Part shown: one piece after another, positions 31,286-64,000 of the stretch
How the letters are laid out: every line of letters starts with the position of its first letter
How positions within the stretch are numbered: the stretch's first letter is position 1
Origin: Felixounavirus LF82P5
Strand: one strand, 5' to 3'
DNA length: 64,000 nt
Sequence record: OZ035800.1
Position numbers and translations under genes: made by a program
The notes under the pieces: model-generated
Database searches by the model: none
What the model was told of the DNA's origin: nothing
The model's input: only the letters and a program-made list of their open reading frames with translations

Positions 31286-31798
31286 TCAACTTAGTTTTGC
31301 AAACTCTCCGTGGAGTTTAATAGCAGCTTCACAGTAAGCTTTATGGGCTTCTTCTTCTGTTGTGTATGTTCCTATATGTATGGTCTTGCCATTATGGTTA
31401 ATCTGGGCTATCCACTTACCAGACTTGCTTCTACTTGTGCCTTTTAAGTTTTTTGATGTTCTAGGTTGTCTCCTATTAGACATGTTCTGCTCTTTTGTGG
31501 CCTCTCTTAGATTGTCCCAAGCGTTATTCAAACCATCTCCATCTTTGTGGTCAATGTGTTTATCAGGCCACTTACCTGTCATCCAGAACCAAGCAATTCG
31601 GTGATTGCCTGTCCTGTATCCTAAAATCTGTGTGTGCATATACACACCAGACCTTGTGCGCTTAATTGCTCCGGCTTGGCTTCCAATAACCACCCTACTA
31701 CTATGTGGAGGTCTGCCAATCCATGTTAAGACCCCTGTTTCGGGGTCATAATCTAACCAAGACTTTAACTGTTCATGTGTGAATCCACAATCTCTCAT
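31286..31798 (-). CDS. HNH homing endonuclease with AP2-like DNA-binding domain
   Basis: WLDYDPETGVLTW, HRIAWFW, HIDHKDGDGLNNAWDNLREA (HNH), C-terminal KSGKWIAQINHNGKTIHIGTYTTEEEAHKAY (AP2-like); paralogue of 41391..41891; start overlaps DNA polymerase stop by 1 nt. Confidence 0.7.
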   Translation of the reverse strand: MRDCGFTHEQLKSWLDYDPETGVLTWIGRPPHSSRVVIGSQAGAIKRTRSGVYMHTQILGYRTGNHRIAWFWMTGKWPDKHIDHKDGDGLNNAWDNLREATKEQNMSNRRQPRTSKNLKGTSRSKSGKWIAQINHNGKTIHIGTYTTEEEAHKAYCEAAIKLHGEFAKLS

Positions 31799-34497
31799 CA
31801 ATGCACCTCATACCAGCTCTTACCAACCTTACCTGTGCCAGTTACAAGCGTCTCACTCTTCAAACCTAAATTCTTAGATGCCTGACCATACATCCAGTCA
31901 GTTATGGCTTTAACTTCTTGAGTCATACTTTCTGGGCATTCCCAACTGTTTTCATCGTGGTATGCCAGCAAAAGCCTAGCACCGATTGCTGGTTTTCGTC
32001 CATTTAATTTTGTCAACCCTTCTTCACATGCTCTTCTACAAGCAAGGTTAATTGCCTCATTTTGAATCTGAGCCTCCGAACCCATAAGCAAATAATTCAA
32101 TAACTTATGTGGAGATTTACACCACAACCAAGCTCCAGCAACCTTTACAAAACCCCCTTTAGAGATTGCAGCAGTCTTACCAAACACCTCTTCAAGTGCC
32201 TTTTTAGTTGCTTTGTAGTCAGCTTCCAAGTCATCTAGCAGCTTCTTAATTTTAGGCAAACGAATAAAGTAAGTCTGTTTAGTCAGCGCACCTTCCTGAG
32301 TAGTTGCAGCTTTAATCGTCTTAGCAAACTTCTCATCACCTGCACCGAACAGTAGTGCATAGATACCATTCTTAGCTTTCTTACGACCTTTGCTAATCTC
32401 ATGAAGAAGATTCTCATCCTGAGTAGCTCGACAAGTCAAGATATCCTGCTCATCATTCAAGCTAAAGTAAATACTGTTCAGTGTATGTGCATCAGTCCCT
32501 GAATAGACAACGTACAGGTCATTCTCAGAGTCATAACGAAGGTACTTATCAATCTCTGGGTTGAGGTACTCATCAAAGTGTTTGCAGTAATAGCGTCCAT
32601 CTTCTTGACGAATAAACTCAATCTCTTCTTTACCTTGCGTTACCGCTTTGGTGAACTCTTTATCACCCATAAAGTTACAAAGAAGAACTAGCTGGGCTGA
32701 GTTCATATCTACAGAGACAACGTTAGTACCTTCCTCACAAATCCACACTGCCCTCATTGGTTCCCCATAGACAGCAGCACCAGACGGTACGTTTACAATA
32801 CCATATTGTGTCATACGTCCAGTTGAAGTACCAAATACCATTGCACCAGCACTAAGGCGACCATCTGGACGAATCTGGTTCAGCCAACCTTTCTCGTCAT
32901 CCTTTGAGTTCTCAATAGTTCTGCGTCGGTGCATCAAAGTATAGTACTTAGCAATCTTCTGTCCAAGCTCACCTTCAATCGTATCATAAGATGATTCAGT
33001 AAGTTTTGGTGAAGTACGGATTAAGCAAGGTTCAAGCAAATCTGTGTATTTCTTCACAGACCAGTTATGCTCGATGTACTGTACACCTTCATGTTCAACA
33101 TAACTCAAACCACACCGCTCAACCATTTCCTGCCACTTAGGATGCTTTGTAATCATCTTTTTATTGTCTTTGAAACGACAAACTTTGACAGGGCGACCAT
33201 CTGAGTCTTTCTTGTAGTTCCAGTCATCTGGAATCCAACCAACTGATTTCAAGTAGTCTTTAACAACTGCTACCTGAGTCATACGAGAAACTTCAAACTC
33301 AATTGGTGTATATGGTGCATCAATCAAACCTGTGTAGCGACTTGACTCAAGTTCAAAGTGGTTAACAACATGACTGTTATAGTACTTCACAGTTTTGACT
33401 GTTTTTACTGGCTTCCAGTCTTTGCATTTCTTACCAATCTTTGCGTTCAACTCATTGCAAATTGCACGAGCATCCTTCATTGCTACAAAACCTTCCTTGT
33501 ACTCTTCACCAGTTACAGAGTTGGTTGGTGTATAGCAATTTCTCTTTTCAATGTTAAAAATCTTTGTAGTTGGTTTACCAAATGGCTTGATTTCGTATGT
33601 CTGCATCTCACCGTTACGCACCTGCTGACGGTACTTTGTCTTAGGGTACTTGGTAATTCTCTTCAGTCCATCTGCATGACCAAATGTTTCAACATACTCA
33701 TTCCAAGCTTTTGCAAACTCTTCTCCAGTCACTTTACCTTTGGTCTTAATAGTTGGTGGAAGGTGTGGTTCAACTTCTGAAGCAAGCTCATTAGTCAACT
33801 TGTCAAGCTCCTTTACATGGAACTCCATAAGCTCCTTATCAGCTTTCCAACCATTGATAGCTTGTTGACTCATCCAGAAAGATGTTTCTTTAGCTCGCAT
33901 GTAGGTTTCATAAGTATCTACGCCACACTTCTTCAGCTTGAGATATTCATTATCCAGTGCACGTTTAGTTTTGGCGTTAATACGGATATCTTCTACAACA
34001 CGAGTGAAGATTTCTGCATTCCAAACACCCCAATGCTCAATCTCTGGCTTACGAACACCAACACGAGCACCCCATGCAGCCAAGCCATGAGCACCCTTAT
34101 AACCTTTTGGGGTTGGTCTATCCATCCACTGAACACGAGACTGGATAAGAGAATCCTGAAAGAAATTACTCCACGGTTTACACTTTGGATTATCAAAGTT
34201 CCACAAATCAGGTGCAATGTGATTGAAAACCCACCAGTCATAACCCAGACCATTATGGATGCAAAGTCGTTTTGCCTTTAACGCAAACTCAATACCTTCA
34301 CGTAAACCGCCTTTGATGTACTTGGTGTATTTGTGACCGAGGATAGGCTCATCTGTAAAGACCCATACAGGTGGCTCTTCATCGTCAGATTTATAGTCTG
34401 CGAAAGCCATTACGTGCACTTTAGTGAACTCAAGGAGTAAACCATCAGTTTCTGTATCACCAACTAAATGTAAGTTTTTAAAATCTATGTTTTCCAT
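31798..34497 (-). CDS. DNA polymerase, family A (PolA-like) with 3'-5' exonuclease domain
   Basis: Exo motif DTETDGL near N-terminus; motif B-like GRKKAKNGIYALLFGAG; motif C LAYHDENSWE; ATG 34497 with AGGGAG RBS preferred over 34527. Confidence 0.85.
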   Translation of the reverse strand: MENIDFKNLHLVGDTETDGLLLEFTKVHVMAFADYKSDDEEPPVWVFTDEPILGHKYTKYIKGGLREGIEFALKAKRLCIHNGLGYDWWVFNHIAPDLWNFDNPKCKPWSNFFQDSLIQSRVQWMDRPTPKGYKGAHGLAAWGARVGVRKPEIEHWGVWNAEIFTRVVEDIRINAKTKRALDNEYLKLKKCGVDTYETYMRAKETSFWMSQQAINGWKADKELMEFHVKELDKLTNELASEVEPHLPPTIKTKGKVTGEEFAKAWNEYVETFGHADGLKRITKYPKTKYRQQVRNGEMQTYEIKPFGKPTTKIFNIEKRNCYTPTNSVTGEEYKEGFVAMKDARAICNELNAKIGKKCKDWKPVKTVKTVKYYNSHVVNHFELESSRYTGLIDAPYTPIEFEVSRMTQVAVVKDYLKSVGWIPDDWNYKKDSDGRPVKVCRFKDNKKMITKHPKWQEMVERCGLSYVEHEGVQYIEHNWSVKKYTDLLEPCLIRTSPKLTESSYDTIEGELGQKIAKYYTLMHRRRTIENSKDDEKGWLNQIRPDGRLSAGAMVFGTSTGRMTQYGIVNVPSGAAVYGEPMRAVWICEEGTNVVSVDMNSAQLVLLCNFMGDKEFTKAVTQGKEEIEFIRQEDGRYYCKHFDEYLNPEIDKYLRYDSENDLYVVYSGTDAHTLNSIYFSLNDEQDILTCRATQDENLLHEISKGRKKAKNGIYALLFGAGDEKFAKTIKAATTQEGALTKQTYFIRLPKIKKLLDDLEADYKATKKALEEVFGKTAAISKGGFVKVAGAWLWCKSPHKLLNYLLMGSEAQIQNEAINLACRRACEEGLTKLNGRKPAIGARLLLAYHDENSWECPESMTQEVKAITDWMYGQASKNLGLKSETLVTGTGKVGKSWYEVH

Positions 34498-36994: not shown

Positions 36995-38972
36995 GGGTCG
37001 TAAATTGAAAGAGGCTGGTCAGTTTGTTGGTCATTGCGCATGTCCACGTTGTGGTTCATCAGATGCTGGTTCAATCTATCATCATGACGATGGTTCTTAT
37101 TCAATGACTTGCTTTAGTTGTAACAAAGGTTTCCCAGAGTGGGATTTTGATAAAGGACAAATCGTGAGCACTTATTCTACTGGTTCAGACAATAAAAACC
37201 GTACTTTCCGTGGAATGGATTTAGACGATGTGAAAGAAAACCTTGAAGCAATGGACTTAAAGGACAGGAAGATTCCTGCAAAAGTTCTTGAGCGTTTGGG
37301 TATCAAGGTTGACATTGACAGTGATGGTGAAATTGACGCGCATTTCTACCCAACTTACAAACGCAATGAAGATGGCAAGCTAGAGCATGTTGGCTACCGT
37401 GTTCGTCACCGTTACCCAGAAGACCATCCAAAAGAGCACCTACGAGGTAAGTTAAAAGACTTTTCTGGTGGTGTTGGAGACATTAAAGGTGAACTGGCAA
37501 TGTTCGGTTCATGGATTGCTCCAGAAGGTGGTAACCGTCTATTCATCTGGGAAGGTGAGATGGAATGTGCGACAGCAATCTATATGACTTCTCTTGCGAT
37601 TAAGGACAAATCTCGTCGTAAGAATTACTGTCACGTATCTGTTCCATCAGGTGCAAACATCAAGTCTATCAAGGATAACTATCAGTACATTACATCATTT
37701 GATGAGATTTACTTGTGCTTTGATAACGATGAAGCAGGTGCTAAAGCCACTAAAGAGGCTGCTGGTATCCTACCTATTGAGAAGGTTCGTTTATTCCAGT
37801 ATCCAGAAGGTGTAAAAGACCTTAACGAGTGGTGGACAAAGTTCTATAAAGAAAAAGATACAGTTCTGGAAGGATTTAAGCAGCGTATCTACAATGCACC
37901 CCGTTACTGCCCTGCTGGTATCAAGAACTTCGCAGATGGTTTTGAGGCAATGAAGAATCGTGGTCAGATTCCATTGATTCCTTTCCCAGAATCTTTCGGA
38001 GATTTGAACAGACTGACTTATGGCGGTTATGGTTTAGGTGAGATTACAACTATTGCAGCACCATCTTCAGTAGGTAAGTCAGCTTACACTCGTGAGATGA
38101 TTTACTCAGCTTGGAAAGAAACTGATTATAATATCGGTGTAATTCCTGTAGAAGATACCTATGAAGAGTTGATGGAGATGCTCTGTGCAATCCACCTGAG
38201 CAAGCAGATTTCTGAGATTCCTTATGACGAACGTGATTGGGATGAATTGAAGAAGGCACACGCAGAACTGTCTAAAGGTCGTCGTATCCACATCGTTGAC
38301 CATCAAGGGGCAATTGACCAAGATAACTTGCTGGAGTTTGTTGACTATCTTGTTAACAGCTTAGACTGTAAGATTATTATTCTTGACCCTATCACGTTAG
38401 CCCTGTCACGTTCTGATACGGATGAAGAAGAAGTTTTGTCTGAGCTATTGCGTCGTTGCAAACGCTACCAGTATGCGCAGGTAAACGTATGTCACGTTCG
38501 TAAGAGTGCAGGCGGTCAGAAAGCTAACTCTGAAGGTGGAGATATCTCTGAAGAGGATATCAAAGGTTCTGGTGCGTATTTTCAGATTTCTATGAACAAC
38601 ATTCTGTTAATGCGTAACAAGGTTGACCCAGACCCTGTTAAGAAAAACTTGACAAAAATCAAGTTAACTAAGTGTCGTCGTCATGGTAAGTCAACAGGTA
38701 TTGCTGGTCATACTTGGTACAATCCAGATACAGGCCGTCTTATCAAAGCTTCTGGATGTGGTGTTGATATTGATGGTGCAGCAGAAAATATTCGCCAGCA
38801 GTTTGGTATTGGTGAAGCTGAAGACCATTACGATGACTCTTTGCCACATTATGAGGACGAAGTGTTTGACCGTGAGACTGGTGAAGTCTATACTGAAGAG
38901 CAGCGTCAAAGCTCAACGATTCCACCTGTATTAAGTGAGGATGCAGATGACTGCCCGTTCGAAACTGAGTGA
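36987..38972 (+). CDS. Primase-helicase (T7 gp4-like)
   Basis: N-terminal zinc ribbon CPRCGSSD...CFSCNK, TOPRIM-like FIWEGEMECATAIYM, helicase Walker A APSSVGKSAYT; ATG 36987 with GAGG RBS (track start 36981 is GTG). Confidence 0.85.
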   Translation: MSKGRKLKEAGQFVGHCACPRCGSSDAGSIYHHDDGSYSMTCFSCNKGFPEWDFDKGQIVSTYSTGSDNKNRTFRGMDLDDVKENLEAMDLKDRKIPAKVLERLGIKVDIDSDGEIDAHFYPTYKRNEDGKLEHVGYRVRHRYPEDHPKEHLRGKLKDFSGGVGDIKGELAMFGSWIAPEGGNRLFIWEGEMECATAIYMTSLAIKDKSRRKNYCHVSVPSGANIKSIKDNYQYITSFDEIYLCFDNDEAGAKATKEAAGILPIEKVRLFQYPEGVKDLNEWWTKFYKEKDTVLEGFKQRIYNAPRYCPAGIKNFADGFEAMKNRGQIPLIPFPESFGDLNRLTYGGYGLGEITTIAAPSSVGKSAYTREMIYSAWKETDYNIGVIPVEDTYEELMEMLCAIHLSKQISEIPYDERDWDELKKAHAELSKGRRIHIVDHQGAIDQDNLLEFVDYLVNSLDCKIIILDPITLALSRSDTDEEEVLSELLRRCKRYQYAQVNVCHVRKSAGGQKANSEGGDISEEDIKGSGAYFQISMNNILLMRNKVDPDPVKKNLTKIKLTKCRRHGKSTGIAGHTWYNPDTGRLIKASGCGVDIDGAAENIRQQFGIGEAEDHYDDSLPHYEDEVFDRETGEVYTEEQRQSSTIPPVLSEDADDCPFETE

Positions 38973-40366: not shown

Positions 40367-41413
40367 ATGGAGAAGTACACATTAACAAAACTTCCCGATT
40401 CAGTTACACATGTTTTTATTGACTCTGACAGCATTGCTTATAAAGGTGCTTGTGTAGTTGAGAAAGCAAAATATAAATACGTCAATAAACTCACAGCAGA
40501 AGAATCTGAACCATTTGACAATGCGAAAGATGCTGCAAGATGGTTAGCAGACCAGAGAATCCTTGTGGAAGAACTTGGCCTGACATTTGATGAAGATGAA
40601 TGGGAAAGACAGACTTGGAAAGAAGCTAAGAGTGAAAAAGAAGCTATCATGGCTACTCAACAGGTGCTTCAGGAATGGCTTAAGATTGTTGGTAAAGAAA
40701 GAACTTGGGTAGGTTATTTAACAGAGAAAGGTGTGCATAAACATAAAGACATTAAAGGTCTTGAGCACCAATATCAAGGTAACCGTAAAGATGCTGTCAC
40801 ACCAACACACTTAGTCGCTTGTCGTGAATACCTTCTGTCAAGACCAGAGTTCAAACTAATTCTTGATGGATTTGAAGCCGATTCTATCGTTATTGCTAAA
40901 GCTGAAAAGATGGGTAAAAAGGCTGCCTTGATGAGTATTGATAAAGACCTTCGCCAAGCTGAAGGGACTTACTGCATTGATATGACCTATGAAAAGTCGC
41001 CTTTGATTTTCATTGCTGACAACAACGTAGGTGAAATTTGGGATTGCCCAATAAAATCAACACCAAAAGCTAAGAAGACAGTTGGTGTAGGTTTTAAATT
41101 CCTTTGTTATCAAGCTGTGGCTGGTGACAATGCTGATAATTATTTTGGTTTAAAGGGTGTTGGTAAGGCTACTGTAATGAAAGCCCTTGAAGGTAAAAAT
41201 ACTTATAAAGAGTGTCTTGATGCTATCTATGAACTTTATGCTAAGAAAGAGTCATACACTTATGTATCATGGGATGGTCAAACAATTACCAGAACACCTT
41301 TAGAGTTAATGCAGCAACACTTTTTCTTAGCTTATCAGGAAAGAAACAAGAAAGACGATTTCACTTTTGATAAGTATGGGTGGACACCAAATGTTAACTC
41401 AACAAACTCTTAA
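40367..41413 (+). CDS. 5'-3' exonuclease / flap endonuclease-like protein (candidate)
   Basis: 348 aa, acidic clusters FIDSDSIAYKG and GLKGVGKATV (H3TH-like); replication-module position. Confidence 0.4.
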   Translation: MEKYTLTKLPDSVTHVFIDSDSIAYKGACVVEKAKYKYVNKLTAEESEPFDNAKDAARWLADQRILVEELGLTFDEDEWERQTWKEAKSEKEAIMATQQVLQEWLKIVGKERTWVGYLTEKGVHKHKDIKGLEHQYQGNRKDAVTPTHLVACREYLLSRPEFKLILDGFEADSIVIAKAEKMGKKAALMSIDKDLRQAEGTYCIDMTYEKSPLIFIADNNVGEIWDCPIKSTPKAKKTVGVGFKFLCYQAVAGDNADNYFGLKGVGKATVMKALEGKNTYKECLDAIYELYAKKESYTYVSWDGQTITRTPLELMQQHFFLAYQERNKKDDFTFDKYGWTPNVNSTNS

Positions 41414-41891
41414 AGAATACCTGCACTATGACCCCGAAACAGGGGTCTTTACTTGGTTAGTTGGTAGAAGAGGTAAGGCCAAAGCTGGCTCAGTAGCAGG
41501 TCTTAAACACCATAGTGGTTATATCTATATAAAACTCTTCGGAAAAAGATATGCAGCACACAGACTGGCATTCTTGTATATGAAAGGCTACCTCCCAAAA
41601 TTTGTTGACCACAAGAATGGTATCAGGCACGACAACTGGTTCGACAATTTGAGAGAGTGTAGCAGGTCAGACAACAACTGCAATGCAGTCAAAAGAAAAG
41701 ATAATAAGTCTGGTGTGAAGGGTGTATATTACCACAAGCAAAGAGGTAGATGGGCTGCACAAGTCAAGCATAATAAAGTATGCTACCATCTAGGTTTATT
41801 TGACTCTATCACTGAGGCTGAATCAGTTGTCAAAAAGAAAAGAGAAGAACTACATAAAGAGTTTTCAAATCACGGAGAAGCTTATGAATGA
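41391..41891 (+). CDS. HNH homing endonuclease with AP2-like domain
   Basis: LHYDPETGVFTW, HRLAFLY, FVDHKNGIRHDNWFDNLRE, KSGVKGVYYHKQRGRWAAQVKHNKVCYHLGLFDSITEAE; paralogue of 31286..31798; start at ATG 41391 (track start 41367 is TTG). Confidence 0.7.
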   Translation: MLTQQTLKEYLHYDPETGVFTWLVGRRGKAKAGSVAGLKHHSGYIYIKLFGKRYAAHRLAFLYMKGYLPKFVDHKNGIRHDNWFDNLRECSRSDNNCNAVKRKDNKSGVKGVYYHKQRGRWAAQVKHNKVCYHLGLFDSITEAESVVKKKREELHKEFSNHGEAYE

Positions 41892-42385
41892 AGATTAAAG
41901 GATTTGGCAATTGCCCTACCTATGGTCATTGGGTGTCTTTATGTGGGGAAGTTGACCCCACTAAACATTTTGGCTTTGTCTATTTAGTGCACTGTAAGAA
42001 GACTGGACAATATTATATCGGAAAGAAACAGCTTAACAGTGTGACCAAAAGAAAAGTTGCTGGGAAGACTCGGAAGAAGGTAGTCACTAAGGAAAGTGAT
42101 TGGATGACTTATGAGACTTCTTCCGAGTATATTAAAAAAGATATTGAGAGCTTTGGAAAAGAATTTTTTGACTTTTACATTATTCAGACCTACTACACAA
42201 AAGGTGGCCTAGTCTATGGTGAAGCAAACCTTCAACATAAATTCGATGTAATGACAAAAAGGATTGACTCGAAGCTCAGACTCTTCTACAATGCCAATAT
42301 TGCAGCAATTAAGTTTATCACTAAAGAAACTTATGAAGATGCTGAAAAAAGAATCCATAAGGTAATGAAAGCAAATTGTGCTTGA
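41888..42385 (+). CDS. GIY-YIG nuclease domain protein
   Basis: FGFVYLVHCKKTGQYYIGKK matches GIY...YIG spacing; ATGA overlap with upstream HNH gene. Confidence 0.55.
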   Translation: MKIKGFGNCPTYGHWVSLCGEVDPTKHFGFVYLVHCKKTGQYYIGKKQLNSVTKRKVAGKTRKKVVTKESDWMTYETSSEYIKKDIESFGKEFFDFYIIQTYYTKGGLVYGEANLQHKFDVMTKRIDSKLRLFYNANIAAIKFITKETYEDAEKRIHKVMKANCA

Positions 42386-42391
42386 TAACTA

Positions 42392-42637
42392 TTGAGAGAG
42401 AATAAAATGTTTAACAAAAGCAAAGCTGTGAGTCATGTAGCAAAAGTTGACAGCAAGATTGAAGAACTTGAGCGCATCCTTGCAAATGCTAGAGAGTCAA
42501 TAATCAAAGAAGTTGAAGCTGTTGAATCTCAAATGCAGCACCTAATGCTTAAACGTCAAGAGCTACGTGAGCATCTAGAATATATTGAAACACGAGAGCT
42601 AAAAGTTAACAGATTTTTAAGGAGTCCAAATGTTTAA
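42392..42637 (+). CDS. Hypothetical coiled-coil protein
   Basis: 81 aa ORF. Confidence 0.4.
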   Translation: MRENKMFNKSKAVSHVAKVDSKIEELERILANARESIIKEVEAVESQMQHLMLKRQELREHLEYIETRELKVNRFLRSPNV

Positions 42638-43385
42638 CTCAAGAGAAGCAGTAAAAAACTGGAATCTTCGTTGTGGAAACACTCAAAAGCAACCTTACAG
42701 TTATGAGTATTGGGAATCTTTAAAATCCCAGTCTCTGTGTATGCTGGAAGAAGCAAAAGAGCTTGTAAAAGCAATTGAAGAGAAAGACCCCATTGAGACA
42801 CTGGATGCTCAGGCAGATTTGCAATATGTTCTTGATGGTCTGATTTATCTGTCACAACATGACCATAACGGTGCTATGAAAGCTGTTTGCCATAATAATG
42901 ACCTGAAGTACACAGATGACTATGAAGAAGCTTTAAAACGTCTTGCAGACATTGAAAAGCGTACTGGTCAAGAGTGTGTTATCAGAATGTCAGTAGTTGA
43001 TGGTAAAGAGTGGTATGCGATTGTCCGTGCAGCCGATGGGAAGATTATGAAGCAATCAAATCTCCCTAAAGTACAGCTTGGTGAATACATTGTAGAACTT
43101 GAAAGCCAAGAACTTTTTGTGGTAGTATCTGAGACATGCGTTATCTGCAAAGGTATTGTAGGTAGCTTAAAGGATTTGGGTGTAGATGGTTTTGTAGAAG
43201 TTAATCCAATTACCTCTAAAGCAGATAAAGATTTCTGTAAAGAGAATGGACTATGGATTGCAGATATTATCTACTATGATGGTGAGCAGTTCCATGTAAC
43301 CTCATACCCGAAACTGAATTATGATGCTAATAACCTGAAGTGTTGGTTAAAAGGGGTTGGTTATAATGGATTCACAGAACATTAA
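42630..43385 (+). CDS. Hypothetical protein
   Basis: 251 aa; N-terminal acidic helical region, C-terminal Cys-containing region. Confidence 0.45.
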   Translation: MFNSREAVKNWNLRCGNTQKQPYSYEYWESLKSQSLCMLEEAKELVKAIEEKDPIETLDAQADLQYVLDGLIYLSQHDHNGAMKAVCHNNDLKYTDDYEEALKRLADIEKRTGQECVIRMSVVDGKEWYAIVRAADGKIMKQSNLPKVQLGEYIVELESQELFVVVSETCVICKGIVGSLKDLGVDGFVEVNPITSKADKDFCKENGLWIADIIYYDGEQFHVTSYPKLNYDANNLKCWLKGVGYNGFTEH

Positions 43386-48170: not shown

Positions 48171-50315
48171 ATGAACAAAGTACAGATTATTAAAAAGAAC
48201 GGCTCACTTGAAGAACCTGATATCAAAAAAGTTTTAGCAGCAGTCACAAAGTCAGCTAACAGAGTTGGTTATAAAGAGCTTCCACCAGATGTTACTCAAG
48301 CTCTTGAGTCAGCATTTATGAGGATTCTGGTAAAGTCCACTAAGCAGAATAATTTGCTAATTTCTGTAAATGATATTCACAGTATTGTTGAGGGTGCTTT
48401 GGCAGAAGTCAATCACGAGATTTATGAGTCTTACTCAACATATAGAAATTACCGTAAAGAAGTTGCTCAAAATTGGGATGAGCTTTACCAGAAGACCAAA
48501 GATACACTCTTCTTAGGTGACCGAGAAAACGCTAATTTTGACAGCAGTTTAATTTCTACAAAAGGTTCAATTATTCGTGGTTATCTGACTAAAGAAATCT
48601 TTAAACAGTACCACTTAACACCAGAGGAACTTGAAGCCATTGAAAAAGGGTTTATCTATATCCATGATTTAAGAGACCTAATTTTTGGTGGTATCAACTG
48701 TTGCCTGTTTGACATTGGTAAAGTCCTGAAAGGTGGCTTTGAAATGTCTGGCATCGAATATTGTGAACCGAAGTCTGTACTGTCAGCCTTACAGGTTATT
48801 GGTGATGTAGTTCTTTCAGCAACTGCACAGCAATTTGGTGGCTTTACTTTAGCAGAGATTGATAAGGTACTCATACCGTATGCTAAGAAGTCTCTACGCT
48901 ATCATGCTGAGAAAGCAGCATCTTATGGTATTCCTAAAGAACATTACCACAATTATGTCATGGAGCAGCTACAGATTGAACTGACTCAAGGTTTCCAGTC
49001 ACTTGAAATGAAACTAAACACTGTACCTTGTAGTCGTGGGGATTTTGCATTTACAACTTTGACATTTGGTTTACTTGATTCAGATATGTCCAATGAAGAT
49101 AACCGACTGCAATATATGATTGCAAGTACTCTCCTAGATGTTCGTATTAATGGACAAGGTAAGAGCAAGAAACCTGTTGTATTCCCTAAACTGGTTTATA
49201 TTTATGACCAGAAGAGACATAATGAGAATATCTGTCAAGGCCACCTGTACAGTAAAGCTATTGAGTGTTGCTCTAAAGCAATGTACCCAGATTTCTTAAG
49301 TGTGTCTGGTCATGGTGCTGTAGCAGGGGCTTTTGAGCGTTCTGGCAAGGTAATTTCACCGATGGGTTGCAGAGCTTTCTTATCCCCATATCTTAACGAG
49401 AATGGAGAAGAGTTCTACGTTGGTCGTGCTAATATTGGTGCTGTATCTTTGAACTTACCAATGATTTACCAGTATTCTAAAGAGAATGGTTTAGATTTCT
49501 GGAAAGAGCTTGATAAGTACCTAGAGATGATTCGTAGTTTCCACAAGAAACGTTACGAAATGATTGCTAATATGCCAGCAAGTTCTAACCCTCTTGCATT
49601 TACACAAGGTGGTCTGTACAAAGGAACTAAGAAGCCTACTGACAAGGTTGGTTGGGATATTGTGAAGTCCTTCACAGCTTCTTTTGGTGTTACTGCGCTT
49701 GATGAGCTATCTGTTCTTGCTGAAGGTAAACGACTTCATGAAGTTGGAAGCTGTAGTTTTGCATACGATGTTCTGGCATACATCAACATGAAAACTGAAG
49801 AGTTTAAAAATGAAGATGGCTTCTTATATGCCGTCTATGGTACTCCAGCAGAATCACTTTGCGGAACTCAGTTAAAACAGTTCAGAGATATGTTTGGCGT
49901 TATCAAAGGTGTTTCTGATAAGGAATACTTTACAAACAGTTTCCATATGAATGTTGCAGCAGACATCTCACCATTTAAGAAGCAGGACTTAGAAGAGCCA
50001 TTCTTCCATATCTGTAGAGGTGGCAGAATCCAGTATGTCAGGGTAGCTAACCCAGAAAACTTACCAGCACTTAAAAGCTGTATTACCAGAGGGATGTTGA
50101 AAGGTTTCTATCAGGGACTTAACTTTGACTTAGCAATCTGTGAACATTGTGGTAACAGACCAAAATCAGATGTTGAAGAGTGTGAAGTTTGTCACTCACA
50201 TGATATCTCTGTGATTAACAGGGTGTGTGGTTATCTTGGATGGACTAAGATTAAAGGTGAATCACGAATGAATGATGCAAAAATCGCTGAGATTCGTGAC
50301 AGAGTTTCTATGTAA
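48171..50315 (+). CDS. nrdD: Anaerobic ribonucleoside-triphosphate reductase
   Basis: N-terminal ATP cone; C-terminal Cys cluster CEHCGN...CEVCHSH and glycyl-radical motif RVCGYLG. Confidence 0.9.
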   Translation: MNKVQIIKKNGSLEEPDIKKVLAAVTKSANRVGYKELPPDVTQALESAFMRILVKSTKQNNLLISVNDIHSIVEGALAEVNHEIYESYSTYRNYRKEVAQNWDELYQKTKDTLFLGDRENANFDSSLISTKGSIIRGYLTKEIFKQYHLTPEELEAIEKGFIYIHDLRDLIFGGINCCLFDIGKVLKGGFEMSGIEYCEPKSVLSALQVIGDVVLSATAQQFGGFTLAEIDKVLIPYAKKSLRYHAEKAASYGIPKEHYHNYVMEQLQIELTQGFQSLEMKLNTVPCSRGDFAFTTLTFGLLDSDMSNEDNRLQYMIASTLLDVRINGQGKSKKPVVFPKLVYIYDQKRHNENICQGHLYSKAIECCSKAMYPDFLSVSGHGAVAGAFERSGKVISPMGCRAFLSPYLNENGEEFYVGRANIGAVSLNLPMIYQYSKENGLDFWKELDKYLEMIRSFHKKRYEMIANMPASSNPLAFTQGGLYKGTKKPTDKVGWDIVKSFTASFGVTALDELSVLAEGKRLHEVGSCSFAYDVLAYINMKTEEFKNEDGFLYAVYGTPAESLCGTQLKQFRDMFGVIKGVSDKEYFTNSFHMNVAADISPFKKQDLEEPFFHICRGGRIQYVRVANPENLPALKSCITRGMLKGFYQGLNFDLAICEHCGNRPKSDVEECEVCHSHDISVINRVCGYLGWTKIKGESRMNDAKIAEIRDRVSM

Positions 50316-52550: not shown

Positions 52551-52576
52551 AAGGGGACTGTAAAGGTTCCCTTTTT
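52551..52576 (+). terminator. Possible rho-independent terminator (weak)
   Basis: AAGGGGA/TTCCCTT stem with wobble, T-run. Confidence 0.35.
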
Positions 52577-52590
52577 ATTTTGGAGGTAAA

Positions 52591-53106
52591 ATGTATCTGT
52601 CAAACCTGAAACGTTCGGTTGCAATGTCAGTTCTAAGACTCAGCTTTGATGAGCGTCAAGAGTTTATAGACTCCCACAAATATGACCCTTCAAATTCTAA
52701 TCACATGGTTCTTTGGAATCGTGATAACTTCCGTGAAAGAGCACTTGTCCGTTATTACCCACACTACACAATAGATAACCTGTATGAATGGTGTGTTGTG
52801 AAGAACACCATTGCAACACTGAACAATCTTTGCAGGTATACGGGTAAGCAAACATTTACATTAGGTCATCACAAACCTGTTACAAAAGGTGGTGAACATC
52901 ACTGTGCAAACTGGTTTATCCAAACTAAAACTGATAACCAGAAGCAAGGAGATAGCCTCCTAAGTATCCCTAAGATGACCTATGAAGAGCAAGAGAAATA
53001 TATCAAAAATAATATGCCAGATGTGCTTGACAACAACTATACAGATTTGGCAATATCTCTCCTGTTGAAGTTCGAGACAGTTTATAGGGCAACTTATAAT
53101 GGCTAA
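52591..53106 (+). CDS. HNH-type endonuclease (candidate)
   Basis: CRYTGKQTFTLGHHKPVTKGGEHHCANWFIQTKTDNQK resembles HNH His-Me finger; GGAGGT RBS. Confidence 0.45.
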   Translation: MYLSNLKRSVAMSVLRLSFDERQEFIDSHKYDPSNSNHMVLWNRDNFRERALVRYYPHYTIDNLYEWCVVKNTIATLNNLCRYTGKQTFTLGHHKPVTKGGEHHCANWFIQTKTDNQKQGDSLLSIPKMTYEEQEKYIKNNMPDVLDNNYTDLAISLLLKFETVYRATYNG

Positions 53107-53377
53107 AGAAAAGTGGGAGATTTTACCATTAGTCAGTGAAGGAGGTAATGGTTGTGAAATGTACATGATACGTGGTCATGTTCCAGAGCCAATTGCACTT
53201 GAGATGGTAAACAACTTTACAGATGGTTCTTACAAAGACTTAGGCGAACCAACTGTCAAGCAACAATGGGTTAAACCTGTACCAGACAGCACAGGTAACT
53301 GTAGTGTACTTTATCACGTTGTAGACCCTGCAAAATGCAAATCTGCAATGGCAGTAACAAACGTAACTTTTGATTGA
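53099..53377 (+). CDS. Hypothetical small protein
   Basis: 92 aa ORF immediately upstream of Prs-like gene. Confidence 0.35.
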   Translation: MAKEKWEILPLVSEGGNGCEMYMIRGHVPEPIALEMVNNFTDGSYKDLGEPTVKQQWVKPVPDSTGNCSVLYHVVDPAKCKSAMAVTNVTFD

Positions 53378-53388
53378 GAGAGAAAACT

Positions 53389-54270
53389 ATGAAAACATCT
53401 ATCCGTGTTACAGTTCATTCACCAACTAAAGGAACTCATGAAGAAGAGTTTAACATCATCCAATTTCCTTCTGGTGAGATTGGTGGACACTTTTCTCCAG
53501 AGTTTGTTGATTTCACTGCTTATGCAGCATCATCCATCAACAATGTGATTATGATTGTAAAAGGTTATGATAAGGATACATTGTTTGCTGTGGCACTTGC
53601 TAAAGAAGCAATTGATGATTTAATTCCTCATGATTATGCTTTAAAGACTGTCATCTTTTACTACTTACCAAATGCACGTTATGACCGTCACATGTTTAAA
53701 GGCGACGCAGCAGCTTTAAAGGTTTTTGCTAAACAGGTAAATGCAATGGGATTTGGTGCAGTCTGTGCAGTTGACCCTCACAGTTACGTTCCAGATAACC
53801 TGTTTAACTGCTTCCAGAGTATTCCTCAAAAGGAGATTGCAGTTCACTACGCAAATGACCCACTGATTGATTACTTAGTAGCCCCAGATGCAGGTGCTGC
53901 TAAGAAGATTGCAGAGACTGCTAAAGAGGTGGATAAACCATACATCACAATGTCTAAGGTGCGTAACCTTAAGACTGGTGAAATTACTGGTATGCGAATC
54001 CTTGACGATGTTGATTTGACAGATAAAACTGTCATGATTCTGGATGATATTTGTGATGGAGGTCGAACCTTCATAGAAGCAGCCAAACATCTTCGTGAAG
54101 CAGGTGCAAAACGTGTGGAACTCTATGTAACTCATGGTATTTTCTCTAAAGATGTTGAAAACTTGCTTGACAATGGTATTGACCATATCTACACTACAAA
54201 CTCTTTAGGGGAAGCTAAAGACCGTGGCTTAACACATTATAGCCAAGTTACTGTAGCAAACCTTGATTAA
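53389..54270 (+). CDS. Ribose-phosphate pyrophosphokinase (Prs)-like protein; candidate ADPR pyrophosphokinase (Adps) of NARP1
   Basis: FPSGEIGGHF, VAPDAGAAKKIAE, MILDDICDGGRT match Prs family motifs; ATG 53389 with GAGAGAG RBS (track start 53374 is TTG); adjacent to NAMPT-like gene. Confidence 0.75.
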   Translation: MKTSIRVTVHSPTKGTHEEEFNIIQFPSGEIGGHFSPEFVDFTAYAASSINNVIMIVKGYDKDTLFAVALAKEAIDDLIPHDYALKTVIFYYLPNARYDRHMFKGDAAALKVFAKQVNAMGFGAVCAVDPHSYVPDNLFNCFQSIPQKEIAVHYANDPLIDYLVAPDAGAAKKIAETAKEVDKPYITMSKVRNLKTGEITGMRILDDVDLTDKTVMILDDICDGGRTFIEAAKHLREAGAKRVELYVTHGIFSKDVENLLDNGIDHIYTTNSLGEAKDRGLTHYSQVTVANLD

Positions 54271-54279
54271 AACTTTATA

Positions 54280-54300
54280 GGGGCTTCCAAGCCCCATTTT
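54280..54300 (+). terminator. Rho-independent terminator between Prs-like and NAMPT-like genes
   Basis: Stem GGGGCT/AGCCCC, loop TCCA, then ATTTT. Confidence 0.55.
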
Positions 54301-54315
54301 GAGAGAGATTAAAAG

Positions 54316-56097
54316 ATGACTAAATCACTTTATGCAGTACCAGCAGGTTTAAATGCAGATGCTTACAAATCTGGTCATGTTTACCAGTATCCTAGCGCAA
54401 CAGAGTACTTGATGTTCAATCTGACACCACGTAGCGACAAATGGTTTAACAGCCCCTTAGCAATTGACGGTGTAGTGGCTTTTGGTATTCAACGTTTTGT
54501 TAAAGATTACTTGATAGACCACTGGAATGCCACTTTCTTTGAACGTGATAAAAAAGAAGCAATTGACGAAATCTTAGAAGTCATGAATGGTGTTCTGGGC
54601 AAAGATGCTATCGGTCGAGAGCATTGGGAAGCACTCCACGATTTAGGTTATCTACCAGTTGAAGTATATGCTGTAGAAGAAGGTACAGTTGTCCCGATGC
54701 GTGTCCCAATGATTGTCTTCCAGAACACTGTTTCAGGCTTCCATTGGGTAGCAGGTTATCTGGAAGATGCTTTCTCTGCTGAGATTTGGAAGGCTTGCAC
54801 CATTGCGACTATTGCATTGCACTACAAACGTATATGTAAGAAGTGGGCTGACCTTACTTGTGACAATGACCTACATTTACCTTATCAGTGTCACGACTTT
54901 GCTATGCGTGGTATGTCCGGCTTTACTGATGACGCATTTAACGCTGTAGGTCACTTAACCAGCTTTAAAGGAACCGATAGCTTCCCTGCTGTATACACGG
55001 CTAAACGCATCTATGGACAGTCTTACCCAATCTCTGATATTGGTAGTTCTGTACCAGCCACTGAACACTCTGTAATGTGTGCAAACATTGCTTGGGAAGG
55101 TGGTAATGAGTTGATTGAAGAAGAAAGACGCTTTAAAGGTGAGTTACAAACCTTCCGTCGTTTCTTAACAGAAACTTACCCAACAGGTATTGCAAGCATT
55201 GTTTCAGATACTTATAACTTCTGGAGAACTGTGTCAGAAATCTTACCAGCACTTCGTAAAGAAATTATGGAACGTGATGGCAAACTGGTAATTCGCCCTG
55301 ACTCTGGAGACCCTGTACATATTGTCACAGGTTATAAAGCAATCCACTTAGAATGTGCTAAGAAGGCTTATTACGAGCACCTAAGCAAGCTGGAAGCCAG
55401 TGACACAATGTTGAATGCTGTTCTGAACATGAAGCTTGAGAACATCAACTATGGTATTGCTGGATGGCTACTGTCAGAAGGCTACGAGATGGTTGTTGAC
55501 AGAGAAGACTTTGAAGTTGCTGATACAGTGATGTTGAAAAATGCTTATATGGTTGGTTCTGCAAACGTTGTAACACGTCCTGTAGCTGAGATTGATGGAG
55601 CTATTAAGACACTGTACAACATCTTTGGGGGAACTATTAACTCTAAAGGCTTTAAAGTACTGGATGAGCATATTGGACTTATTTATGGCGACTCTATCAC
55701 GTTGGAACGTGCAAATGAAATACTGAAGCGTTTGTATGAAATGGGTTTTGCAAGCTCTAACGTAGTGTTTGGTGTAGGTTCTTACACTTACCAGTACATG
55801 ACTCGTGACACCTTTGCATTTGCTGTCAAAGCAACCCTTGCAAGCATTGGTGGTAAAGAGATTATGCTTGCAAAAGACCCTAAAACAGATAGTGGTGTTA
55901 AGAAGTCTGCTTTTGGTGGTGTAGCACCTATGTGGGATGGTGAAAATCTGAAAGCTGTAGATGGCTATGGGTTCCAGAGCTTTGCAGATGCACTTGAACA
56001 TCCAGCTTGTGCTTTACGTCTAGTCTTTAGTGACTCTGAGCAGTTCGGCTACACAACTCTTGGTGATATTCGAAATAATATTGACAAGCAGCTTTAA
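54316..56097 (+). CDS. Nicotinamide phosphoribosyltransferase (NAMPT/NadV)-like protein; candidate Namat of NARP1
   Basis: LPVEVYAVEEGTVVPMRVP, HDFAMRGMS, FKGTDS, SVPATEHS, VSDTYN, IRPDSGDP, FGVGSYTYQYMTRDT all align with NAMPT family as recalled. Confidence 0.85.
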   Translation: MTKSLYAVPAGLNADAYKSGHVYQYPSATEYLMFNLTPRSDKWFNSPLAIDGVVAFGIQRFVKDYLIDHWNATFFERDKKEAIDEILEVMNGVLGKDAIGREHWEALHDLGYLPVEVYAVEEGTVVPMRVPMIVFQNTVSGFHWVAGYLEDAFSAEIWKACTIATIALHYKRICKKWADLTCDNDLHLPYQCHDFAMRGMSGFTDDAFNAVGHLTSFKGTDSFPAVYTAKRIYGQSYPISDIGSSVPATEHSVMCANIAWEGGNELIEEERRFKGELQTFRRFLTETYPTGIASIVSDTYNFWRTVSEILPALRKEIMERDGKLVIRPDSGDPVHIVTGYKAIHLECAKKAYYEHLSKLEASDTMLNAVLNMKLENINYGIAGWLLSEGYEMVVDREDFEVADTVMLKNAYMVGSANVVTRPVAEIDGAIKTLYNIFGGTINSKGFKVLDEHIGLIYGDSITLERANEILKRLYEMGFASSNVVFGVGSYTYQYMTRDTFAFAVKATLASIGGKEIMLAKDPKTDSGVKKSAFGGVAPMWDGENLKAVDGYGFQSFADALEHPACALRLVFSDSEQFGYTTLGDIRNNIDKQL

Positions 56098-56111
56098 AAG
56101 TATATGATAAG

Positions 56112-56133
56112 AGGCTCCTACGGGAGCCTTTTT
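56112..56133 (+). terminator. Rho-independent terminator after NAMPT-like gene
   Basis: Stem GGCTCC/GGAGCC, loop TACG, TTTTT. Confidence 0.75.
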
Positions 56134-56150
56134 AATTTCTGGAGAAAACT

Positions 56151-56486
56151 ATGAAAATCAAAGAGATGAACATCAACATTGTCTTAGAAGAACGTTGGGA
56201 GAACATCAAGAAGCCTGAAGATGGCCATAAGTTTCTTAACAAAATTTTAGTAGCAGCTAAAGAAGAACTGACTGGCAAGGTCGCAGCAGCAATTACAATA
56301 AAGGTCTGTGTAAAAGGTCTTCCAGATAATCACCAATTTGCACTTGACGAGTTTAAAGAAAGCTTCTACAATCCAAACAAACAGATGCTTGAAAGTAACT
56401 TTGCAGTATCTACAAGTATCGTCCATGACAGAAGCTTTATCCTTTACAAGAATATGAGAGGTGAGTCATGCAAGCATATTGGATAG
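56151..56486 (+). CDS. Hypothetical protein
   Basis: 111 aa ORF. Confidence 0.4.
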   Translation: MKIKEMNINIVLEERWENIKKPEDGHKFLNKILVAAKEELTGKVAAAITIKVCVKGLPDNHQFALDEFKESFYNPNKQMLESNFAVSTSIVHDRSFILYKNMRGESCKHIG

Positions 56487-56644
56487 AAATTTTACTGTCA
56501 CTTGGTGGCGTAGCAGTGTTTGTTTACCTTCTTTGTAAGTACTATGCAGAGCACAAAAAATGTGACTACTGTAATGGGGAAGGTTATACAAGAGCAGGTT
56601 GTTGCCCTATGTGTGGTGGTTCTGGTAAAATGTTTAACAAGTAA
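56468..56644 (+). CDS. Small membrane-anchored DnaJ-type zinc-finger protein (58 aa), not in ORF track
   Basis: ATG 56468 with AGAGGTGA RBS; one TM helix ILLSLGGVAVFVYLL then CDYCNGEG and CPMCGGSG (two CxxCxGxG). Confidence 0.45.
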   Translation: MQAYWIEILLSLGGVAVFVYLLCKYYAEHKKCDYCNGEGYTRAGCCPMCGGSGKMFNK

Positions 56645-63578: not shown

Positions 63579-64000
63579 ATGGGTATTGTAAAAATCATCA
63601 ATGGTGATATCTTTGCTGCATTTGATAAAGGTAAGTTTGACATCATTGGTCATGGTTGTAACTGCATGAACCTAATGGGCGCAGGTATCGCTGACAAGAT
63701 TTCTAAACTTTACCCAAAAGCATATGAGACCGATACAGAAGTTTATCTCTATGCAGGTGGTATAGGTCACAAACCCTGTGAGAATTTACTAGGTAATTTC
63801 TCTGTAGCACGCTTAAAACAAGGTCGTATAGCTAACCTTTACACTCAGCTTAAGACTGGTAAAGATGCCCGATACAGTGCTTTAGAGTCATCTTTGAAAC
63901 AGCTTAACAGATACTGTGAAGTTAATCAGTTGAAGAAAGTTGGTTTACCTATGATTGGTGCAGGTATCGGTGGACTTGACCCTCAAGCCATCACAGTTAT
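63579..64000 (+). CDS. Macro-domain protein (ADP-ribose binding/processing), 3'-truncated by window end
   Basis: Hand translation MGIVKIINGDIFAAFDKGKFDIIGHGCNCMNLMGAGIADKI ... KVGLPMIGAGIGGLDP; matches macro-domain Gly-rich motifs; GGGAGAG RBS; no stop before 64000. Confidence 0.6.
   Translation, partial: MGIVKIINGDIFAAFDKGKFDIIGHGCNCMNLMGAGIADKISKLYPKAYETDTEVYLYAGGIGHKPCENLLGNFSVARLKQGRIANLYTQLKTGKDARYSALESSLKQLNRYCEVNQLKKVGLPMIGAGIGGLDPQAITV

Follow-up and report, generated by a model that had tools for sequence, protein, structure and literature searches.

Here we describe two adjacent genes in a 64,000-nucleotide stretch of DNA from Felixounavirus LF82P5 (sequence record OZ035800.1), hereafter the window, one resembling ribose-phosphate pyrophosphokinase (Prs) and the other nicotinamide phosphoribosyltransferase (NAMPT), and we conclude that they very probably form the operon of the phage NAD+ reconstitution pathway NARP1 of a Felixounavirus, encoding the enzymes Adps and Namat. 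The first gene, adps (53389..54270, + strand), codes for a predicted ADP-ribose pyrophosphokinase of 293 amino acids with a Prs-like fold, in the allele type found in phage KhF2, and the second, namat (54316..56097, + strand), for a predicted NAMPT-like nicotinamide ADP-ribose transferase of 593 amino acids; a spacer of 45 nucleotides lies between them. A first-pass annotation, made from the letters of the sequence, had placed a 293-residue Prs homologue immediately upstream of a 593-residue NAMPT homologue and had read the pair as NARP1. Both genes and all of the motifs it quoted are there, and its reading is borne out by orthology to the published genes bas63_0079 and bas63_0080, by the published signatures of Adps and Namat, and by scans that found no nicotinamide mononucleotide (NMN) adenylyltransferase (NMNAT). 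By sequence and gene order the pair is orthologous to the operon in which NARP1 was discovered, and because this is a published system in its original genus, it is already known and adds no new biology.

NARP1 was defined in Felixounavirus Bas63, where deleting genes 79-80 gave about 20-fold fewer plaques on hosts carrying SIR2-HerA, where ADP-ribose pyrophosphate (ADPR-PP) was detected only in the wild-type infection of defended cells, and where the anti-defence effect was independent of host pncC or nadR; both reactions of the pathway were then shown with the homologues from phage SPbetaL1 (bioRxiv 10.1101/2024.02.11.579819). The enzymology has been shown for homologues from SPbetaL1, ICP1, DyoEdafos and P. 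foliorum, and the counter-defence phenotype by deletion in Bas63 and in FADO as well as by co-expression of the operon. In the proposed mechanism, the defences SIR2-HerA, DSR1/2, type I Thoeris or SEFIR would cleave NAD+ into ADP-ribose and nicotinamide. Adps would then pyrophosphorylate ADP-ribose at its terminal ribose, with the beta-gamma pyrophosphate taken from ATP, yielding ADPR-PP, and on Namat nicotinamide would displace this pyrophosphate, forming NAD+ directly and dispensing with an NMNAT. The defences that the pair had been predicted to counter (Thoeris, DSR1/DSR2, SIR2-HerA and SEFIR) agree with the published work on NARP1. For the window pair itself we infer the ADPR-PP and NAD+ chemistry by analogy with the in vitro results for the SPbetaL1, ICP1 and other homologues, and the anti-defence phenotype by orthology from the in vivo results in Bas63.

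The orthology follows from the agreement of length, spacing, neighbours and sequence. Bas63 (JohannRWettstein, MZ501086.1) is of the same genus and carries bas63_0079 (Adps) and bas63_0080 (Namat) on the same strand, with equal protein lengths (293 and 593 residues), a 45-nucleotide spacer with a hairpin, and the same flanking genes. The Namat proteins are identical at 585 of 593 residues (99%) and the Adps proteins at 230 of 293 (78%, without gaps), and the window is colinear with Bas63 from position 38155 to its end at 91-96% nucleotide identity. The two phages differ in the N-terminal part of Adps, which in the window is a recombinant allele identical to that of KhF2, and in the 114-residue bas63_0081, which lies just downstream of namat in Bas63 and is missing from the window (56098-56150). 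More broadly, dozens of Felixounavirus genomes share 96-99% identity with the region 53000-56500, which matches 257 phage records, among them LF82P5 (98.8%, the best), KhF2, wV8 and HY02, nearly all of which label the two genes ‘ribose-phosphate pyrophosphokinase’ and ‘nicotinamide phosphoribosyltransferase’. The surrounding gene set is typical of Felixounavirus: terminase, portal, capsid, tail, ThyA, DHFR, NrdAB, NrdDG, rIIA and rIIB.

The open reading frame (ORF) that contains adps spans 53374..54270 (+ strand) and could encode 298 residues from a TTG start, with an internal ATG at 53389 that gives the 293-residue protein. We favour the ATG because a Shine-Dalgarno-like motif, GAGAGAGA, stands before it and the identical motif stands before the start of namat. 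The protein contains FPSGEIGGHF, VAPDAGAAKKIAE and MILDDICDGGRT, matches the Pfam families Pribosyltran and Pribosyl_synth in its C-terminal half, is 100% identical to the Adps of KhF2, and shares 32-37% identity with the proven Adps of ICP1 versus 23% with E. coli Prs. Its residues were compared with the ICP1 sequence and with the residue list of the ICP1 structure paper, which names R87, H121, D161, K185, D212, D213 and D216 and describes a remodelled pyrophosphate (PP) loop (C215-S220) together with the loss of the C-terminal alpha11-alpha12 module of Prs (PMC13586617). In the window Adps the listed residues correspond to R97, H131, D167, K190, D219, D220 and D223, K190 being the catalytic lysine, and C215, at the start of the PP loop, corresponds to C222. 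The catalytic lysine, the acidic triad and the DDICD loop are thus common to the window protein and the characterised NARP1 Adps enzymes; the loop reads DDICDG in both the window and ICP1, whereas it is DDMIDTG in E. coli Prs. At its C-terminal end the protein is about 20 residues shorter than the E. coli enzyme, and the alpha11-alpha12 region is missing. For the ICP1 residue F18, a MAFFT column that pairs it with T16 of the window was rejected, since the similarity of the motifs TFSD (ICP1), RFSDGE (Prs) and QFPSGE (window) points to F26 as the probable equivalent.

A comparison with profile hidden Markov models of bona fide Prs, which had been suggested as a check, sets the protein apart in the same direction. 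On the NCBIfam Prs equivalog models the window Adps scores 91-104 bits and fails every cutoff (296-297), whereas the E. coli Prs control passes with 533 bits; ICP1 Adps likewise fails the equivalog cutoffs. The subfamily model TIGR01251 is passed narrowly, with 123.5 bits against a cutoff of 113 over residues 87-292 only. Across these models E. coli Prs reaches 533 and 423 bits, and ICP1 Adps, whose activity is biochemically established, reaches 98 bits on the subfamily model. NCBIfam holds no dedicated model for Adps or Namat.

The namat protein carries the motifs HDFAMRGMS, FKGTDS, SVPATEHS, VSDTYN and IRPDSGDP and matches the Pfam families NAPRTase and NAMPT_N, and in a search of the PDB its match to the solved SPbetaL1 Namat (E = 5e-128) was stronger than that to human NAMPT (about 1e-40). 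In published Namat structures a selectivity clamp is formed by a helix with the motif GSX-Phi1-X-Phi2-X-Phi3-TRD, in which X is aromatic, and by a loop that supplies either a stacking arginine or a lysine or tyrosine followed by a stacking residue, Bas63 Namat being an example of the latter case (PMC12774641). The selectivity-clamp helix (SCH) of the window protein reads G488-S-Y-T-Y-Q-Y-M-T-R-D498 (GSYTYQYMTRD); the same position reads GSFTYQYNTRD in SPbetaL1, GAQTYQRNTRD in the solved enzyme 9ke8 and GGALLQKVDRD in the Nampt of Xanthomonas (Xcc), and Phi3 is methionine in the window where asparagine or valine is usual. Its selectivity-clamp loop (SCL), S40-D41-K42-W43, is identical to that of Bas63 Namat and is 4 residues longer than that of SPbetaL1, K42-W43 replacing R40. 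All residues of the catalytic core are present (F195, R198, D221, H251, R327 and D329; in SPbetaL1 F189, R192, D215, the catalytic histidine, R306 and D308). Core and SCH motif are shared with the Namat of SPbetaL1, which, with the Adps of SPbetaL1 (PDB 9w5w/9w5x; PMC12774641) and that of ICP1 (PMC13586617), is among the NARP1 enzymes characterised biochemically and structurally.

The window Namat also has a variable insertion at about residues 340-427 (about 55333-55596), some 77-85 residues more than in SPbetaL1, between RPDSGDP and FGGT, where its neighbours, a strand (RPDSGDP) and a helix (FGGT), lie next to residues that contact substrate. Its length, about 85 residues in the window, varies among phages, from about 95 residues in Erwinia phage M7 and 55-60 in alia and Pontus to about 10 in ICP1 and SPbetaL1. 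A second insertion relative to SPbetaL1 adds about 15 residues at about 258-272 (about 55087-55131). A Pfam search with the larger insertion by itself (E up to 1) gave no credible match, and the insertion receives no discussion in the Namat structure paper (PMC12774641).

According to the first-pass annotation, no NMNAT was visible in the window. That statement holds: Pfam scans of the predicted window ORFs of at least 70 residues, leaving out NrdA, NrdB and NrdD, which were named from the Bas63 annotation, found no NMNAT or cytidylyltransferase-like, NadR or PnuC domain, and a Pfam scan of 10 larger Bas63 ORFs lying outside the window found no NMNAT, NadR or PnuC domain.

Several observations weigh against reading the pair as NARP1, or limit how far the comparison carries. 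Of a genome of about 85-89 kb the window contains 64 kb, and what lies beyond it was checked through Bas63 alone. Among 293 Adps residues, 63 differ between the window and the tested Bas63 allele, most of them (54) within the first 180. The adenine-stacking F92 of ICP1 Adps aligns with Met102 in the window, next to Phe103, and ICP1 F223 aligns with Glu230. The homologues whose chemistry was established in vitro, those of SPbetaL1 and ICP1, are only 27-42% identical to the window proteins. Finally, Namat enzymes keep a synthesis of NMN in vitro that depends on phosphoribosyl pyrophosphate (PRPP), and by analogy the window Namat may carry some classical salvage flux.

The adps gene of the window is a recombination mosaic. 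Relative to Bas63, adps is about 60% identical at the nucleotide level over its first 270 or so nucleotides and about 80% over the 270 that follow (together 53389-53930), against about 96% in the flanking genes; in the protein, the first 180 residues are about 70% identical and the C-terminal third about 95% (107 of 113 residues). Over codons 1-180 synonymous sites are saturated (proportion of synonymous differences, pS, 0.83) and the ratio of nonsynonymous to synonymous substitution rates (dN/dS) is about 0.12, so the divergent N-terminal half of Adps is under purifying selection. The 5′ part of the gene looks like an old allele swapped in by recombination, with its function apparently retained. 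Felixounavirus and its relatives carry Adps alleles of two groups; that of the window belongs to the larger, KhF2-type group, and the experimentally tested Bas63 allele to the other.

How the two genes are transcribed turns on the spacer, in which the first-pass annotation had placed an intrinsic terminator (54280-54300) that could set their expression ratio. The hairpin is real and its stem conserved, but its U-tract is poor and varies among relatives, so that as a terminator it would be leaky at most. It lies at 54280..54295 (+ strand), with a G+C-rich stem of 6 base pairs (GGGGCT-TCCA-AGCCCC) followed by AUUUUG, and its RNA has a minimum free energy of -12.6 kcal/mol (z = -2.8; 2 of 200 shuffles fold as well). 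The tail, AUUUUGAG, has four U after an A, where an intrinsic terminator calls for a G+C-rich stem-loop directly before a U-rich tract with at least 5 U in 8, and our consensus scan made no call. The stem is invariant across Felixounavirus and Mooglevirus and the loop varies (TCCA, TGAA, TCAA, TAAA and GAAA); because the stem never changes, it supplies no covariation evidence. In Mooglevirus the U-tract is degraded (ACUUUG, ACUAUUG), in Kolesnikvirus the adps-namat spacer has 13 nucleotides and no hairpin, and in the Justusliebigvirus alia the spacer holds an unrelated hairpin without a U-tract. We read the element as at most a leaky terminator or attenuator, or else as an mRNA-structure element that may stabilise the message, and it would at most attenuate read-through from adps to namat.

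Two canonical intrinsic terminators stand on either side of the pair. One, at 52551..52573 (+ strand), has a 9-base-pair stem followed by UUUUUAUUUU, was called by the scan, folds at -14.1 kcal/mol and ends the upstream transcription unit; the annotation of phage AYO145A has a rho-independent terminator at the corresponding site. The other, at 56109..56132 (+ strand), directly follows namat with a 10-base-pair stem and then UUUUUAAUUU, was also called by the scan, folds at -16.6 kcal/mol (z = -3.3; none of 200 shuffles as good) and is an annotated terminator in phage Barry. Together they bracket exactly four genes, namely an ORF of 171 residues, an ORF of 92 residues, adps and namat. Most likely, then, adps and namat are co-transcribed within this four-gene, terminator-bounded block, which suggests that the two small ORFs, whose proteins are conserved, share a transcript with the NARP1 genes. 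Immediately before the downstream terminator stands a promoter-like site close to consensus, TTGACA-16-TATGAT (56081-56108).

The alternative that survives best, though we consider it unlikely, is that the spacer hairpin is an efficient terminator after all and that adps and namat are separate units expressed at a set ratio, with namat served by a promoter of its own such as TTGACA-17-TACACT (54167-54195). The stability of the hairpin, the conservation of its stem while the loop varies, its annotation as a WebGeSTer terminator in AYO145A, and the promoter-like site itself, which matches at 10 of 12 positions and lies inside adps upstream of the hairpin, all speak for this arrangement. They have to be set against a tract of four U only, preceded by an A, which falls short of the scan; against a Mooglevirus U-tract that has decayed although the stem is kept; against the missing hairpin of Kolesnikvirus and the different, U-tract-free one of alia; and against the literature, which handles the pair as one operon (bioRxiv 10.1101/2024.02.11.579819). 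Promoter-like matches in this AT-rich region, moreover, are only about twice as frequent as shuffling would give.

The spacer is of note for a separate reason. Several relatives have an HNH homing-endonuclease gene inserted between adps and namat, for example phage SUSP1 (3391-3882 of the compared locus), so that the spacer (54271-54315) is a recurrent landing site for such genes, of which the window holds the uninterrupted form.

The small unassigned ORFs that flank the pair, which had been put forward as possible members of the same accessory island, do exist, and the island itself finds no support: their order is conserved Ounavirinae synteny, and in other genera they do not sit beside NARP1. 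The 171-residue ORF (52591..53106, + strand; phrog_3500, with weak HNH-like similarity) belongs to the same terminator-bounded block, stands upstream of Adps in Felixounavirus, Mooglevirus, Suspvirus and Kolesnikvirus, and has a dN/dS of 0.12 relative to Bas63. It has a homologue in Justusliebigvirus that lies away from the NARP1 of that genus, and none was found near NARP1 in the Justusliebigvirus alia, in ICP1 or in Pontus. The 92-residue ORF (53099..53377, + strand; phrog_4726), directly upstream of adps, is restricted to records of Felixounavirus, Mooglevirus and Suspvirus (230 records, all close relatives) and has no Pfam match. The accessories known for NARP1 are Adpp, with a Macro domain, and RyDEP, with a RyR domain, and Pfam finds neither domain in the flanking ORFs; nor do the NARP1 loci of ICP1, Pontus and alia hold any of the flanking ORFs of the window. 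The conserved order says little because the whole region from NrdAB to rIIA is syntenic across Ounavirinae. The two small ORFs reflect Ounavirinae gene order and are not obligate NARP1 partners, and we rejected them as NARP1 accessories, the 92-residue ORF occurring in close relatives only and neither ORF occurring at the ICP1 and Pontus loci.

It is accordingly improbable that the 171-residue ORF, the 92-residue ORF, adps and namat make up an extended functional module with two new NARP1 accessories, even though canonical terminators enclose exactly these genes, the four-gene order is kept in Kolesnikvirus at an Adps identity of about 42%, and both small ORFs are under purifying selection. 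The synteny that makes the order uninformative, the distant position of the Justusliebigvirus homologues of the 171-residue ORF and the loci without either ORF all count against the module, as does the lack of a Macro or RyR domain, and in heterologous hosts the published two-gene operon was sufficient alone.

More improbable still is classical nicotinamide salvage, in which a true PRPP synthetase and a NadV/NAMPT enzyme would make NMN, with NAD+ completed by host NadR or PncC. The names favour it: Pfam, PHROG and NCBIfam, with almost all GenBank labels, call the proteins Prs and NAMPT or NAPRT, and with 469 bits Namat lies above the cutoff (405) of the NCBIfam equivalog ‘nicotinate phosphoribosyltransferase’. 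Bacterial Prs and NadV/NAMPT enzymes share both folds and the catalytic lysine, histidine and aspartate with the window pair, and NMN is made from PRPP by Namat enzymes in vitro. Yet deleting both pncC and nadR from the host did not keep Bas63 from overcoming SIR2-HerA, ADPR-PP built up in infected cells, and NAD+ was the sole published product of Namat when both substrates were offered. The window Adps fails the Prs equivalogs and is without the C-terminal regulatory and filament module of bacterial Prs, its ribose 5-phosphate (R5P)/PP loop reads DDICDGGRT against the DDMIDTGGT of Prs, and the aromatic residues of the adenine clamp are present in the window Namat and absent from NAMPT enzymes, Nampt included.

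That the pair is instead half of NARP2, with a Nampt that uses PRPP and an NMNAT encoded elsewhere in the phage, is hardly credible: a NAMPT-family enzyme is present, but the scans of window ORFs of at least 70 residues and of the 10 larger Bas63 ORFs outside the window found no NMNAT or cytidylyltransferase-like domain, the clamp motif is of the Namat type, and in the analysis of Osterman et al. (bioRxiv 10.1101/2024.02.11.579819) the partner of Namat enzymes is Adps and that of NARP2-type Nampts is Nmnat. NARP2 (Nampt with Nmnat/NatV, as in Vibrio phage KVP40) has the aim of NAD+ restoration in common with NARP1, and its Nampt has the NAMPT fold of the window Namat. NARP3 (a PnuC-like and a NadR-like protein, as in Bas30; PMC13464706) also restores NAD+ during infection, and the PnuC-type transporter and RNK-NMNAT domains that distinguish it were both absent from the Pfam scans of the window. 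The pathways differ in the logic of their substrates, since NARP1 recycles ADP-ribose and NARP2 and NARP3 use PRPP or nicotinamide riboside.

Having settled on NARP1 as much the most probable identity of the pair, we turn to a gene that might touch the same pathway from a distance. A Macro-domain protein gene (PF01661, by Pfam) begins at 63579 on the + strand and is cut by the window end (63579-64000), leaving its N-terminal 140 residues, which are 99% identical to bas63_0095 (‘putative phosphatase’, 261 residues). It starts about 7.5 kb and some 14 genes downstream of namat and is the only Macro gene found in the window. With the Macro protein of the Pontus operon it shares 27% identity (E = 3e-13) and a GxGxxGGD-type motif, and the best matches of both proteins are macrodomains of the TARG1/DarG class; closer homologues (34%) occur across many records of T4-like phages. 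The C-terminal extension of the Macro protein, taken by itself, had no credible Pfam match (E up to 1).

In Pontus the Macro gene sits between those for Adps and Namat, the layout called NARP1-AP (Adps, Adpp and Namat; Vibrio phages Gary and Pontus; bioRxiv 10.64898/2026.01.28.702374). The core of Adps and Namat is common to NARP1-AP and the window, but the Macro gene of NARP1-AP lies inside the operon, and that of the window lies outside it and encodes about 100 additional C-terminal residues. A Macro phosphatase within about two genes of the operon is what marks NARP1-AP, and the flanking ORFs of the window are without a Macro domain. The aRES preprint scanned two genes on either side of NARP1 for Macro domains (bioRxiv 10.64898/2026.01.28.702374), and because its survey covered only two genes per side, a Macro gene placed as in the window would be missed. 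It is a tentative and rather unlikely proposal that the Macro protein works in trans like Adpp, dephosphorylating ADPR-1''-phosphate, or salvages ADP-ribose derivatives in some other way, and so would supply Adps with ADP-ribose; a role as a DarG-like de-ADP-ribosylase directed against DarT is equally open. Were such an in-trans role true, Felixounaviruses would be able to resist RES-type (aRES) NAD+ phosphorolysis by means of an unlinked NARP1-AP.

Elsewhere in the window, three ORFs are of the homing-endonuclease type (41367-41891 and 41888-42385 on the + strand and 31286-31801 on the - strand), two with HNH_3 and AP2 domains and one GIY-YIG and SegE-like. A segment of about 515 bp (41368-41883) without counterpart in Bas63 corresponds to the ORF at 41367-41891, and nrdD (48171-50315) is intact, the endonuclease that splits the Bas63 nrdD not being present here. 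An ORF of 251 residues (42630-43385, + strand) has a weak PRA-PH or MazG-like nucleotide pyrophosphohydrolase domain (PF01503, E = 3.8e-5) and would be a further nucleotide-metabolism gene of the early region.

For the Felixounaviruses the meaning of the pair lies in annotation and in host range. About 250 Felixounavirus-type records keep salvage names for what is an anti-defence module, and NCBIfam would assign the same names; a rule for re-annotation can be drawn from the clamp motif GSX-Phi-X-Phi-X-Phi-TRD, the DDICDG loop, the failed Prs equivalog cutoffs and the lack of an NMNAT. The recombinant N-terminal allele of Adps, the variable insertion of Namat and the unlinked Macro gene are modest leads. 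The presence of a NARP1 pair helps to predict host range on strains that carry SIR2-HerA, DSR, Thoeris or SEFIR, and such prediction is relevant since Felix-O1-like phages serve in typing and therapy.

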